IMG/VR virus record: IMGVR_UViG_3300050821_010487
Location: 18,336 to 82,335 of that record
DNA from: a virus
DNA length: 64,000 nt
Direction: 5' to 3' (one strand)
Position numbers and translations under genes: made by a program
Notes under the pieces: generated by a model
The model's input: the letters and a program-made list of their open reading frames with translations, nothing else
The model's database searches: none
Told to the model about the DNA's origin: nothing
Part shown: positions 12,201 through 28,431 of the stretch, piece after piece
Layout of the letters: every line of letters begins with the position of its first letter
Numbering within the stretch: the stretch's first letter is position 1

Positions 12201-15191
12201 TGGAAGCACCAGCTCAGTGAGCAGTTCGGAGGCAAGCGCGGCAAGGCCTTGTCCCGGGCGGTTACCAAGGCCGGTCACGATGCGATCGTCACGCATGACG
12301 AGGACGGATCGACCCGCGAGATCGTTGACCTGACGGGCTTCCACCGGCAGGGGACGGCCGAGCCGGACCCTGAGCCCGTGGCGGTGGTCGCCCATTTCGA
12401 GGAAGGGGGACATCGCCCCGTCGGCTTTCCGATCTACCGGGGGCTTATTGTCGGCCCCGAGCACCGGGACAACCCACTAGCTGGTGTCCGCACGAACGGG
12501 ATAGGCGAACACTGGACCGATGATGAAGAGGAGGCCCGCAACTGGGCTACGCCTGGTCACGACATCGGCAACCCGTTGCACGAACACGGCATCGGTGTGG
12601 TGCTGCACGCTGATCATCCCGGCGAAGAGCATGAGATGCCTGACTGGAGGAAAGCTGCCACGGGGGTGTATGACGAGGCCGAGGATGATGATGACGGCTG
12701 GGGAACCGAGCGCGAGATAGCCCTGGACGATGGTGCTCCGATCCATGTTCACCACGTGTCTTACGGTCCTGATTTCGAGACCGAACACCCGGTACACCTG
12801 CACGCCGAGGCTGCTGCTGGCGGTAATCCGGCGCGGCTTTGCGCCCACTTCGAGGCCACCGCCACCGAGCACACCGGGATGACTCACGACGAGCTGGACC
12901 AGCACCTGGAGACCTGGTTCCGCCCGCAGCGCCTGGATGCCGAACGGACTACGCATCCCCGCAGCGGCTACCAGGTCGAGACGGGCACTCAGCTCCGGCT
13001 GCACCAGCCGTCCCGCGACGACGAGGGCCCCGGCGAGGACGGCGTCGAAGGCCCGGTTCACTTCGAGGTCTGGGACCACGGCGACCCGCACACCCAGACC
13101 GGGCTGCAGGGGCTGCAGTACCCGAAGAAGACCGGTGAGACCCGGCCGGTCGAGCACGTCTACCGGGGGGTGTCCGCAGACGAGTGGCGGCAGGCCCAGC
13201 AGCGCGGCCACGTCCAGTCCGACGGCCGGGGCACGATCGGCTCCTGGGAGGGCACCAACGCCGACGTGGACCCGAAAGCGGCGGTGTCCTACCTGCCCCG
13301 CAACGCCACCGGCCACATCCTCAAGATCCGGGTGCACCCAGACGACGGCTGGTTCACCCACAGCGCAGACAGCTATGTCCGCACCCGCCACCCGGTCCCG
13401 CTGGACCGGGTGGAGGCGGTCTCCCCGGAGATCACCAAGGGCGGCAAGTACGGCGGCGAGATCACCGTCGGCAAGACCGCTTCGCTGCAGGCGACGGCCG
13501 CGCTGGAGAACCCCTACACCGGTCATGGTGTCTGGTACCACGGCACCCAGGCCGACCCGGAGGACATCAGGCAGCACGGCCTGTCGAACGCGGGCGAGCA
13601 TGCCACCGGCCGGTACCAGGTCCCGGAGAGCGAGTCCGACGATTCCGGCCACTGGAACGCGATGGTTGGCAGTCACTTCACCGCCGACCATGCCATCGCG
13701 GGGGAGTTCGCCAAAGGTGAGCACGAAGGCAGCGACAACGAGGGCTACTGGGGCGAGGACGAGCCTGAGCACCACGGGATCATCCACGCCTACGTGCACC
13801 TGAAGAACCCGAAGGTCTATTCCTCCGAGCACGACATGGACCACGAGGCCTACGAGCACGAGTTCGCCGCGGGCAATCACCCCTCGAACCATCATCCAGG
13901 CCTCGGCCGGGAAGGTGACGCCGACGAGCTGGCCGACGCCGAGGAGATGTGGCCGCACGCGCACCGGATCGCCCGGGATTACGGGCACAGCGAGATCCCC
14001 CGGAGCGTCTACGGCCATCACATGTCACCGTTCGAGCAGCACCCGATGCGGACCGCCTGGCTGAACACACACCCGGACAAGGTGGGGATCGCCGACCGGT
14101 TCAAGCAGCGGCTGATGGACGCCGGCCACGACGGCATCGTCTACGGCAACGAGTACGAGCGCAGCAACCGCGGTGCCGCCGCCAATTCCTCAGTCGTCGC
14201 CTTCCATCCGCATCAGGTCGAGATCACTCAGCACCACCACGTCGATGAGCCCCACGACCCGGACCCTGAGCCCAGCGGGCACCTGGCGGCCCTGGCCTCG
14301 CTGCCGGACGCCCCGGAGCAGAAGCCCGCGGTGGTGCAGCACTTCGGGGTGCAGGACGATCACGAGGAGTGGGAGCGCCGGGTGACGCCGCCGTACACCG
14401 GCCAGCCGCTGTTCCACGGCACCCGCTCGATCCTGGAGCCTGATGAGGAGCTGACCCACGAGCAGGCGGCGGAGCACGCGAACAACACCGACATCCATGC
14501 CGAGCCTTACGTGCACGCGACCAGCAGCGGCGCCGAGGCGCACGACTGGGGCAAGCGTGCCGATTCCTCTCAGGCCGCCTGGCGGATGGAGGAGCTGGGC
14601 CGCGCCCGCGATCTGCGGCCGGGCGAGAACGAGGATCAGGCCTATCCCTCGCGGGTCTACCAGGTGCATCCTCTCGGCGATGTCGAGCCCGACCCGCACA
14701 AGGAAGGCGCTTCCTACCGCTCGGCCAGCCCAATGCGGGTGATCAAGGAGGTGCGCCCGTTGTCCTGCTACGCCGAGGAGTGCGACAACGCCGAGCACTG
14801 GCCGGATCACCCGCACTACGAGCACCTGGCCCGGGACGAGGATGACGAGGACATGAATCACTACGCGGCGGCCCAGCCGGGTCAGTACATCGCTCAGCCT
14901 CCCCGCACCGCGGCCGTGGTCGCCCACTTCGACGCCGGGGCCCTGAGCGCCTCTGAGAGCCCCGGGTTCGCCCGGGGGGTCCTGGAGGGCATGCCGGCTC
15001 TCCACCACGCCGTGGCGGGCAGCCTGGAGGCCCTGGCGGGGAGTTTTGCGGAGTCCCCGGTGCACCCGCACCTGGTGGACCAGCTCATCGACATGGCGAG
15101 CGCGGCCCGCTCCGCGGAGAGCCACGCCAGGGACCTGGTGGCCCAGTTGCCGGCCGCAGAAGGTGTGTGCGAGCCAGCCCCAAAAGCGTGA
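9210..15191 (+). CDS. Giant polyvalent protein A (about 8 ADP-ribosyltransferase-fold domains incl. one Arr-like, DnaJ-type Zn finger, ParB, GNAT)
   Basis: 1993 aa; ART first-strand motifs LWRG, YFHIT, MHRG, YAHNT, IYRG, VYRG, WYHGT, LFHGT; IEGHHR (ParB); GKGYASALM (GNAT); CxxCxGxG repeats. Confidence 0.8.
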   Translation: MDLLDHFSRDTGFLAIVEAMGTSYRLWRGEGPHDQKPLSDEHAGRWFTPDRLTAEDYAYKSGGHLLHLDVTEADKEHITKPDSTWPSVVNGDASTIHVSPELAARSEHHPGGCPSCDPGHDETHRHQREWLKSQAAAEPARYFHITSPGNRAGIQHRGLVPAEDLHEDEPGESGGGDASSTWFHVLHKAPEHPRRDVWELTHPHLYDLDEDSNFENGASNPFVRTTRVDPDHLRLVHEGAVSRGTSLEAAARPGRGEKVCPCCQGEGEHGDGSECDPCDGQGIVHSNEPDRYCPGQPQPRRRHWREGAAVDDEKSPDLLEHFQVAAMAWENQSPRDKTQYTPISVRHAGFAGLVGDSEYDRELREDTGEERAEDGHFDEDLYDDTSPEPTHEEKAHYDEHDEWPDSFYERHDQAYEQAVSQRKKAAEEEDTPDHEDEGLMHFVREHGGNTDLWKKHGEFGPVDIKHQPVYATQSHVAKEHIERYQGDRQAPSHAESLHGDRSHVGYLGDKHPLFVTHEGRVHTIEGHHRVATDMAMGRHETLGWHFNLDKHPRLADRWEEDPEDWEGKIAEHHQHLQAQGGFEHPLAPGHLGEQGYRVHDENRGFYAERDNWSGHQPQQTWGTLHLHHPDGTAVAHLDYAQVGKDEDPHHEMHVEDLRSGEGGKGYASALMDHVYATHPEPAEVSHSLRTDEGGGWWEHYIAKRPEIAERERRQEEGGEGHEVVAHFEEEAAPAAGPRPAALPSEDWEEHLRKLRYRKRNEPLMHRGMAIELPPEVHDFVHDQCQTRDRQAQAILDHLKSQPLGMHWSTDERVPRFFAGKERKNNLPGSTKVILHAKLPGASDIETDPQKLQEEAVFRHDNWMGGEHEIPMKAGAPVHVTGVTWYGYGNRKRTGHVWGEQHLAVRGGEPEPEIEVVAHFEAEAAHQGPLTMEYAHNTEKAPDMGEIFGQHVEPHGRYMVQREPGDSYGQDPRWVTGTVTFHNPLHVPYGGLASEPTNWKHQLSEQFGGKRGKALSRAVTKAGHDAIVTHDEDGSTREIVDLTGFHRQGTAEPDPEPVAVVAHFEEGGHRPVGFPIYRGLIVGPEHRDNPLAGVRTNGIGEHWTDDEEEARNWATPGHDIGNPLHEHGIGVVLHADHPGEEHEMPDWRKAATGVYDEAEDDDDGWGTEREIALDDGAPIHVHHVSYGPDFETEHPVHLHAEAAAGGNPARLCAHFEATATEHTGMTHDELDQHLETWFRPQRLDAERTTHPRSGYQVETGTQLRLHQPSRDDEGPGEDGVEGPVHFEVWDHGDPHTQTGLQGLQYPKKTGETRPVEHVYRGVSADEWRQAQQRGHVQSDGRGTIGSWEGTNADVDPKAAVSYLPRNATGHILKIRVHPDDGWFTHSADSYVRTRHPVPLDRVEAVSPEITKGGKYGGEITVGKTASLQATAALENPYTGHGVWYHGTQADPEDIRQHGLSNAGEHATGRYQVPESESDDSGHWNAMVGSHFTADHAIAGEFAKGEHEGSDNEGYWGEDEPEHHGIIHAYVHLKNPKVYSSEHDMDHEAYEHEFAAGNHPSNHHPGLGREGDADELADAEEMWPHAHRIARDYGHSEIPRSVYGHHMSPFEQHPMRTAWLNTHPDKVGIADRFKQRLMDAGHDGIVYGNEYERSNRGAAANSSVVAFHPHQVEITQHHHVDEPHDPDPEPSGHLAALASLPDAPEQKPAVVQHFGVQDDHEEWERRVTPPYTGQPLFHGTRSILEPDEELTHEQAAEHANNTDIHAEPYVHATSSGAEAHDWGKRADSSQAAWRMEELGRARDLRPGENEDQAYPSRVYQVHPLGDVEPDPHKEGASYRSASPMRVIKEVRPLSCYAEECDNAEHWPDHPHYEHLARDEDDEDMNHYAAAQPGQYIAQPPRTAAVVAHFDAGALSASESPGFARGVLEGMPALHHAVAGSLEALAGSFAESPVHPHLVDQLIDMASAARSAESHARDLVAQLPAAEGVCEPAPKA

Positions 15192-28431: not shown

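Follow-up and report, generated by a model that had tools for sequence, protein, structure and literature searches.

A Lys/Arg-Thr-Ala motif in the giant head-module proteins of actinomycete phages may mark sites of processing by the capsid-maturation protease

Short-consensus processing of head and ejection proteins is already known from phages T4 and phiKZ/SPN3US, where one head protease (gp21 in T4, with IPI-III and Alt among its substrates; likewise in phiKZ, 201phi2-1 and SPN3US) cuts the capsid protein, the portal, itself and the ejected proteins at a three-residue consensus (PMC10052503). In herpesviruses, the assemblin precursor runs in the order protease, release site, scaffold, maturation site and capsid-binding tail, and the pseudorabies virus sites are cut after Ala, at YLQA/T for release and VQA/S for maturation (PMC4498786; a slash within a sequence marks a cut or a border). 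Polyvalent proteins have also been described before; Iyer et al. (2017) proposed that they are released by embedded peptidases, either zincin-like or C-terminal and assemblin-like, and described no linker consensus (PMC5512222). Here we analyze a 64,000-nucleotide (nt) stretch of viral DNA, which we call the window (positions 18,336 to 82,335 of IMG/VR record IMGVR_UViG_3300050821_010487), in which a short Lys/Arg-Thr-Ala motif recurs in three giant proteins, namely the polyvalent proteins A and B and a 1114-amino-acid (aa) protein.

All window features given below lie on the + strand unless stated otherwise. Polyvalent protein A (1993 aa; 9210..15191) consists of serial ART-like, ParB-like and other modules, as judged from weak Pfam ART-PolyVal/Arr matches, repeated ART-like motifs and mosaic blocks of homology. 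Polyvalent protein B (1799 aa; 15167..20566) has GNAT, NUDIX and 2H phosphoesterase domains above the Pfam cut-offs, along with ART, nucleotidyltransferase-like and ParB-like blocks recognized by homology. With many unrelated enzyme domains per chain, encoded by a phage and beside packaging genes, A and B are classed from their sequences as polyvalent proteins, and they appear to be cargo polyproteins of about ten enzyme modules each. Motif search of A found the linker sites KTAS (13473-13484) and RTAA joined to VVAHFD (14904-14933), and the linkers of A also bear VVAHFE tags. The core sites of B are KTAA (17033-17044), KTAD (17825-17836), KTAV (17852-17863), KTAS (18356-18367), RTAA (18746-18757) and a second KTAS (19577-19588), and degenerate forms stand at further borders, as RQAE (15194-15205), KRATAA (15905-15922), RHAA (16262-16273) and KEAV (20090-20101). 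The 1114-aa protein (24095..27439), which is Cys-rich and Pro/Gly/Gln-rich and matches no Pfam or PHROG family, contains RTAA (24200-24211 and 26204-26215), RQAV (24926-24937), RHAA (25355-25366), RIAA (25571-25582), RQAD (26366-26377), KTAG (26957-26968) and RKAG (27008-27019). All 23 strings from which the original prediction of processed polyproteins was drawn are present in the translations where it placed them, and their nucleotide coordinates are correct.

To compare these occurrences with composition, expected counts were taken from shuffles within each protein. The prediction had been framed on a loose motif, [KR]xA[ASGD], to be set against the Ala/Arg-rich background. By this measure the loose rule is weak, and it is the tight core inside it, [KR]TA[AS], that is strongly enriched. 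The loose motif occurs 10 times in A (5.3 expected), 12 times in B (5.6) and 10 times in the 1114-aa protein (5.0), with P values of 0.01-0.04 each; this is about 2-fold in the three big proteins vs 1.2-fold in the other window genes (74 copies, 63 expected). Single loose-motif sites are indistinguishable from chance by count alone. The tight core is found twice in A (0.12 expected), four times in B (0.12) and twice in the 1114-aa protein (0.16), or 8 copies vs 0.40 expected over the three. Comparison with other genes, which had been suggested as a check, bore out the enrichment, as the remaining 74 genes of the window (15.3k aa) contain a single copy vs 1.9 expected. A scan of the three big proteins for k-mers, free of any pattern, returned VVAH, VAHF, WYHG, AHFE, KTAS, YHGT and RTAA as the top seven 4-mers, where WYHG is an ART motif, and KTA as the most over-represented 3-mer. 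Across 80 distinct sites the core is K/R-T-A-A/S, degenerate forms having Thr replaced by Q, V, I or H, and Glu is not part of it. The predicted rule of cleavage after [KR]xA is too loose as written, and the core that has support reads [KR]-[T>Q,V,I]-A-[A>S,G]. An [L/F]SSG linker code is absent in these proteins.

IMG/VR contains five complete relatives of 160-166 kb with terL (the gene for the large terminase subunit) 75-81% identical, and four of them (G001, G003, G004 and G005) were used whole, with genes called by codon-position G+C. In these four genomes, [KR]TA[AS] occurs 21 times in the polyvalent proteins (1.2 expected), 11 times in a protease-scaffold fusion (0.6), 5 times in a giant protein encoded between portal and protease (0.4) and 8 times in the 1114-aa family (0.8), vs 16 times in the 681 other proteins (140,000 residues; 15.2 expected). 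Tail and replication proteins of 800-1800 aa in the relatives have zero copies. Eleven further polyvalent homologues contain 19 copies vs 1.2 expected. The enrichment in the complete relatives, which is 10-20-fold, is confined to head-module proteins.

Next, we considered where the motif falls along the chains. Module borders were defined independently of the motif, as the ends of BLAST homology blocks against relatives in which the module order is shuffled. Five of the six core sites of B (residues 623, 887, 896, 1064 and 1471) lie 0-6 residues from block ends (P about 0.002), and the degenerate sites at residues 247, 366 and 1642 are also at block ends. The claim that the motif stands between nearly every domain thus holds for B by the block-end test, whereas A, with homologues for few of its modules, gives a weak result (P 0.04). 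The borders also correspond to places where relatives have natural gene ends. The second polyvalent open reading frame (ORF) of G003 starts just past the position of GKTAS in A, and the homologues P0022 (MADILRNP...) and P0024 (MADRGAGYPNP...) start just past the positions of RHAAG in B and KTAS in A, respectively. In pRLB1-9.1 (NZ_CP041653.1), a 154-kb circular "plasmid" of Streptomyces sp. RLB1-9 that is the closest complete record, P0008 ends with ETAA and a stop codon opposite VKTAV of B. The gene of the 1114-aa protein is two ORFs in G003, G004 and G005, split at the position of RIAAS: opposite VGGLQRIAAS, the first ORF ends ...APVGGK and stops in G004 and G005, or reads ...VGGSQKAAAL... 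in G003, such that RIAAS aligns either with QKAAAL or with the stop codon that splits the gene. RHAAG of the same protein aligns with KTAAG in relatives. As read from these alignments, the motif falls where relatives have split genes or naturally begin a protein.

The motif is also found in the canonical substrates of head proteases. The window ends within the portal gene, and its portal fragment (the N-terminal 156 residues; 63531..63998; tblastn to annotated portals, E 8e-17) contains RTAA (63705-63716) followed by a Gly-rich stretch. Portals retain RR(K)TA[A/L/G] in 6 of 6 aligned cases, including this fragment, just before the Gly-rich stretch and a conserved DIQFATGRPRDP block. In about 50 capsid genes of the clade, the encoded N-terminus varies over its first 8-25 residues and is followed by a G-R-[V/I/T]-A type of site, written out as G-L-R-(G/P)-R-(V/I)-A or as H-V-R-T-A, and then by the capsid core with an invariant (K/S)(K/R)KSDDY. 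In the protease-scaffold fusion of G001 (P0014), RTAA follows the first insert, and GGKTAA/AVAQAQ stands where the coiled-coil scaffold starts; the scaffold is a separate ORF in pRLB1-9.1 and is fused behind GGKTAA/AVAQ in G001. About 35 residues before its acidic C-terminal end (...DDSDLFID), P0014 has QQRTATRSAPSLASVG, and this pre-C-terminal Q-R-T/A-A site of the scaffold, which generally lies about 35-40 residues ahead of the acidic tail, is kept in G003-G005, pRLB1-9.1 and the phages RedWattleHog and Loanshark. Behind the protease domain, [KR][TAQ]A[ASGTE] occurs in 19 of 28 aligned proteases, no further than about 30 residues from the end of the last conserved block, typically as GLxKAA(S/A) and then (K/R)TA. 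One protease fusion, P0026, contains an inserted ART module that is homologous to residues 366-630 of B and flanked by RRTAAL, and this insertion physically ties the cargo type to the protease and the head interior.

Two side observations concern these fusions and the giant protein on the portal side. P0026 and P0027, which are protease-fusion or DUF7178 proteins of relatives (one of them from Streptomyces sp. NBC_01242), carry the inserted ART module homologous to B 366-630. In G001-G005, both the scaffold fusion (...DDSDLFID) and the portal-side giant (...LDDYDDDVISV) have acidic C-termini, and each has a conserved K/R-T-A-(D/G/A/T) site upstream of its tail, at about 35 residues from the end in the scaffold fusions and at 46-66 residues in the portal-side giant; the site of the giant is kept in RedWattleHog and Loanshark while its acidic tail is not. 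The acidic tails may serve in binding to the capsid or the portal and be removed by clipping.

The protease was found in all four whole relatives, in pRLB1-9.1 and in 28 further loci. Residues 64-213 of P0014 match phrog_18299, annotated as head maturation protease (E 1e-19), and the His and the Ser of TSMG are invariant in a 28-sequence alignment. An AlphaFold model built from that alignment (pLDDT 72.5) matches T4 gp21 best (5JBL; Z 9.6, root-mean-square deviation (rmsd) 2.7 Å over 126 residues), followed by the proteases of varicella-zoster virus (VZV; 1VZV, Z 8.9), human cytomegalovirus (HCMV; Z 6.9) and KSHV (Kaposi's sarcoma-associated herpesvirus; Z 6.2), with the next, unrelated fold in the structural comparison at Z 6.3. 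Foldseek likewise placed herpesvirus proteases and gp21 at the top, with weak E-values. Pfam, and a sequence search of the protease domain against solved structures, returned nothing. By its modeled fold, the protease of the relatives belongs with the serine proteases T4 gp21 and herpesvirus assemblin, and the motif sites of the fusion correspond in position to the release and maturation sites of assemblin.

The analogy with T4 and phiKZ prohead proteases on which the original prediction relied holds in its logic, with T4 gp21 also the best structural match to the protease, and it does not hold in the cleavage rule: the T4/phiKZ consensus ends in Glu (x-x-Glu; L/I-x-E or A-x-E), whereas the motif here is K/R-T-Ala, for which the x-x-Ala/Ser or Thr specificity of herpesvirus assemblin is the closer precedent. 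T4/phiKZ substrates mostly lose one N-terminal propeptide, whereas here about ten candidate sites per protein lie between complete enzyme modules, which would make the substrates true polyproteins. The herpesvirus system (UL26/UL80a) has in common with this one the fold, a protease N-terminal to the scaffold, and Ala followed by a small residue, with one site just after the protease domain and the other about 25-40 residues before the C-terminal tail. It differs in its P3 and P2 preferences, which include no basic-residue rule, and in having no cargo enzymes, whereas here ParB-like, DUF7178 and ART modules lie between protease and scaffold and the code extends to separate giants. Like the polyvalent proteins of Iyer et al., A and B have many unrelated counter-defence-type domains per chain (ART-PolyVal, NUDIX, GNAT, ParB and 2H), a mosaic order and packaging neighbours; unlike those proteins, A and B are without a peptidase, and the inferred protease is a separate head gene with its domain N-terminal rather than C-terminal.

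The motif extends to isolated phages that are only distantly related. In Gordonia phage RedWattleHog (terL ~32% identical), gp9 has seven (R/H)TA(A/S/G) sites, gp8, gp12 and the protease gp13 are also motif-bearing, and the capsid protein, which begins ...GFGRVAKASDEY, contains GRVAKASDEY. In the cluster C mycobacteriophage Loanshark, the observed and expected counts are 5 vs 0.35 in gp88, 4 vs 0.48 in gp96 and 5 vs 0.46 in the protease fusion gp97; in the same region the motif is absent in eight other proteins and occurs as a single copy in the small gp89, and the capsid protein begins ...GLGRFAKASDDY.

The RTAA site and the VVAHFE tag, which the original prediction did not connect, are two halves of a single peptide in A, PRTAAVVAHFD. 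Composite forms in the relatives are HQAAVVAHFE, HTAALLEHFE, QVTAAVVAHFE and HTAARELEAHFG, and further homologues have HQAALMEHF and HTAALVTHFE. By itself, the HF half makes up the very N-terminus of A (MDLLDHF), with (V/L)(V/L)xHF at residues 3-8, and it opens the first polyvalent ORFs of relatives (MDPLLAHF, ...FLMHFE and MDDLLAHF). In pRLB1-9.1 the order is reversed, tag and then motif, at N-termini (TSFFRQAG and AVAHFRQAA) and internally (GFFRQAS). From these arrangements, K/R-T-A-A appears to close one module and the HF element to open the next, and (V/L)(V/L)xHF(E/D) may be kept on each released module as a tag, possibly for capsid targeting, much as T4 has a capsid-targeting sequence, to which this short N-terminal peptide may be similar. 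Near the portal of G005, two adjacent proteins of 167 and 140 aa (G005:C1:13331-14253, - strand) start ...NDLIRHFAS and ...GDDLIRHFAS, and these small proteins are candidates for stand-alone tagged cargo. A more far-reaching idea, which we put forward tentatively and consider rather doubtful, is that of a two-part "cut-and-tag" cassette, in which a cut site with Ala at P1 ends a module, the HF element stays on the next as a capsid-targeting, ordering or stability tag, and enzyme genes placed between cassettes become packaged and released cargo; the whole actinomycete-phage superclade, including the cluster C mycobacteriophages, would then run on an assemblin-like release/maturation logic.

We consider it probable that the motif is recognized by the capsid-maturation protease of the phage itself, which would turn packaged giants into separate injected enzymes. 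This reading fits the confinement of the motif to head proteins, its positions at the capsid and portal N-termini, directly after the protease domain, near the scaffold C-terminus and at gene splits, and the gp21/assemblin fold of the protease, in a family known to cut after Ala. The gene of the protease would lie in the missing half of the genome, where the protease would form the N-terminal domain of a ~1240-aa protease-scaffold fusion, and the polyproteins would be co-assembled into the procapsid. The protease would then cut after the Ala of K/R-T-A and before A, S or G, which seems the most economical placement of the bond. Cutting would trim the N-termini of the capsid protein and the portal, free the protease itself and the scaffold, and chop A, B, the 1114-aa protein and the other head giants into single modules, which would stay inside the head until they pass into the host along with the DNA. 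We infer this packaging, cleavage, exact bond and ejection from the motif, its enrichment, its placement at borders, its restriction to head proteins and the protease fold. What would be new here is an Ala-ending code common to a large actinomycete-phage superclade, the systematic placement of the motif between complete enzyme modules of polyproteins that have no protease of their own, and a herpesvirus-like layout of release and maturation sites in tailed phages.

Several observations weigh against processing by the capsid-maturation protease. No protease, scaffold or capsid gene is present in the window or in its 82-kb contig, and the link to the protease is thus made through homology to the relatives. 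Homologous sites are counted repeatedly in the enrichment figures, such that the counts are not independent events, with the contrast within the same proteomes remaining clean. The flanks of the sites are not less hydrophobic than other sequence, as the hydrophobic fraction within 12 residues of the sites (0.233) is uninformative when set against the background (0.232). A single-sequence AlphaFold prediction of B 355-1075 had a mean pLDDT of 35, in which domain borders were unreadable, and the description of the sites as linkers is accordingly taken from the homology-block borders. Some copies of the motif lie inside strongly conserved blocks, such as PKTAAFAHLIEHG in DUF7178 and, in the 1114-aa family, the invariant blocks HE(L/H)HTAATDW and (D/G)R(S/T)HTAS(V/M)A(I/V)GY that enclose HTAAT and HTAS, and these copies may be structural rather than cut sites. 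In the searchable literature we found no virion proteome, N-terminal sequence or in vitro cleavage for the clade or for Bxz1-type phages. The major capsid protein gp27 of phage G, a homologue of the clade capsid (E 1e-29), offers a precedent for cutting after Ala: it is shortened from 282 to 255 residues, as determined by N-terminal sequencing (PMC5646251). Its loss of 27 residues puts the cut after Ala27 in EEGRVALA/QAM, two residues beyond R-V-A and at a non-homologous position, which makes it no direct positional precedent.

The motif could instead be an uncut linker or docking peptide that recruits proteins or modules to the scaffold core or the portal, with the polyvalent proteins packaged and ejected whole. 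The N4 virion RNA polymerase is ejected whole. The (V/L)(V/L)xHF(E/D) element at extreme N-termini (of A, of the G001, G003 and P0021 homologues and of the two small G005 proteins) resembles a targeting tag, for which docking may well be the right description, and packaging without processing is known for some polyvalent proteins (Iyer et al., 2017, PMC5512222). We nevertheless judge docking unlikely as an account of the motif itself, since the motif occupies the positions that are classically cut (ahead of the capsid core, directly behind the protease domain and ~35 residues short of the scaffold C-terminus) and matches natural gene splits, and since a chain of 1800-2800 aa with ten folded enzymes would be hard to thread through the tail in one piece. 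If the sites are cut, the scissors could be another protease, either an embedded zincin-like (MPTase) domain or a host protease acting after injection. Embedded peptidases were favoured by Iyer et al. (PMC5512222), and polyvalent proteins of G001, G004, G005, P0017, P0019, P0020 and pRLB1-9.1 do include HExxH zincin-like modules; Pfam and an HExxH scan, however, found no peptidase domain in A or B, where the sole HEYDH of B sits inside an ART module and A has no HExxH. An embedded zincin protease in A or B is thereby rejected, and both proteins retain the motif regardless. The motif is moreover common to the capsid, portal, scaffold and head protease, all of which the head protease cuts wherever such systems have been studied, and Ala at P1 suits the assemblin family, such that cutting by another protease is very unlikely.

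Finally, the recurrence could be functionless, as an inherited linker, a joint of recombination at the DNA level or an effect of Ala/Arg/Thr-rich, GC-rich composition. The loose motif is barely enriched, the modules are clearly shuffled among relatives, and over-use of one codon hints at some shared DNA: the first Ala of K/R-T-A is encoded by the rare codon GCT in 5 of 11 sites (window 13473-26968) vs 10% genome-wide, and three KTAS sites have AAGAC(C/G)GCTTC in common. However, the codons at the sites vary (AAG, CGC or CGG; ACC or ACG; GCT, GCC or GCG), which limits shared DNA to at most ~10 nt and makes a DNA-level recombination joint an unlikely origin. The shuffles control for composition, the 681 other proteins are unenriched, and proteins without homology to one another have the motif, which is retained even among phages that are ~30% identical. 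A functionless recurrence is largely refuted by these controls, and we give it almost no credence.

If the sites are cut by the capsid-maturation protease, they provide a readable code for capsid cargo and for the mature ends of its enzymes in a very large group of actinomycete phages, made up of IMG/VR contigs by the hundred together with Gordonia phages of the Stormageddon type and mycobacteriophages of the Bxz1 type. Cutting would explain how more than 20 counter-defence-type enzymes could be delivered from two genes, would tie polyvalent proteins to the capsid protease rather than to embedded peptidases, and would be evidence for the herpesvirus Ala-P1, release/maturation layout in tailed phages. 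A further use of the cassette could be to load phage heads with foreign proteins.

The window belongs to an 82,335-bp contig (68% G+C) that contains terL and the 5′ part of the portal gene, with the contig end falling inside the latter; tail genes, too, are not on the contig, which is about half of a large phage genome of ~160-162 kb. TerL (708 aa; 6731..8857; identified by tblastn to annotated terminases) is 32-34% identical over 85-88% of its length to those of Rhodococcus phage E3, of phages of Gordonia and of cluster C mycobacteriophages (E down to 8e-89), and by this homology it marks the locus as a phage packaging and head region. The 708-aa protein has no PHROG or Pfam match, a terminase sequence search against solved structures returned nothing, and no match to the region came up by megablast in collections of phages and plasmids. 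The giant ORFs are directly 3′ of terL here, in the five complete relatives and in pRLB1-9.1. The pRLB1-9.1 counterparts of TerL and the portal are 47% and 49% identical, and that record has terL, portal, protease fusion, scaffold, cement protein, HK97-fold capsid protein and polyvalent protein genes; it looks like a phage or phage-plasmid of the same clade in a cultured strain. pRLB1-9.1 is also catalogued in IMG/VR as a viral genome. The window comes from an actinomycete (Streptomyces-type) myovirus-like phage. The contig had been read at first as a Streptomyces conjugative plasmid, on the basis of its FtsK/TraB-like, ArdC-like, primase, DnaE, RecA-like, cytosine methylase, dehydroquinate-synthase-like and GH5 genes, and that reading was dropped in view of the terminase and portal matches and of the 160-kb relatives with a full head and tail module.

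Two smaller proteins of the window also contain the motif or a form of it. The 331-aa protein (27436..28431) has RRAD at 27898-27909, and its ATGSLRR[RQ]A[DQ] is kept in 4 of 4 relatives amid a variable stretch. The 370-aa zinc-ribbon protein upstream of the portal (62419..63531) has RTAA at 63307-63318; its homologues align over residues 23-248 only, such that RTAAF is not comparable and its membership among the sites is doubtful. The junction of A and B (window 15160-15216) is conserved, as the first polyvalent ORFs end ...PKA and stop (in this phage, G003b and P0024) and the second open with a conserved ...(S/R/W)PKS(L/V)(S/T)... leader (B, P0017, P0018, G004b and G005), an arrangement that would fit a programmed frameshift. 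Just upstream of the portal region, on the - strand, are a dehydroquinate/deoxy-inosose-synthase-like gene and a GH5 glycoside hydrolase gene (59580-62559).

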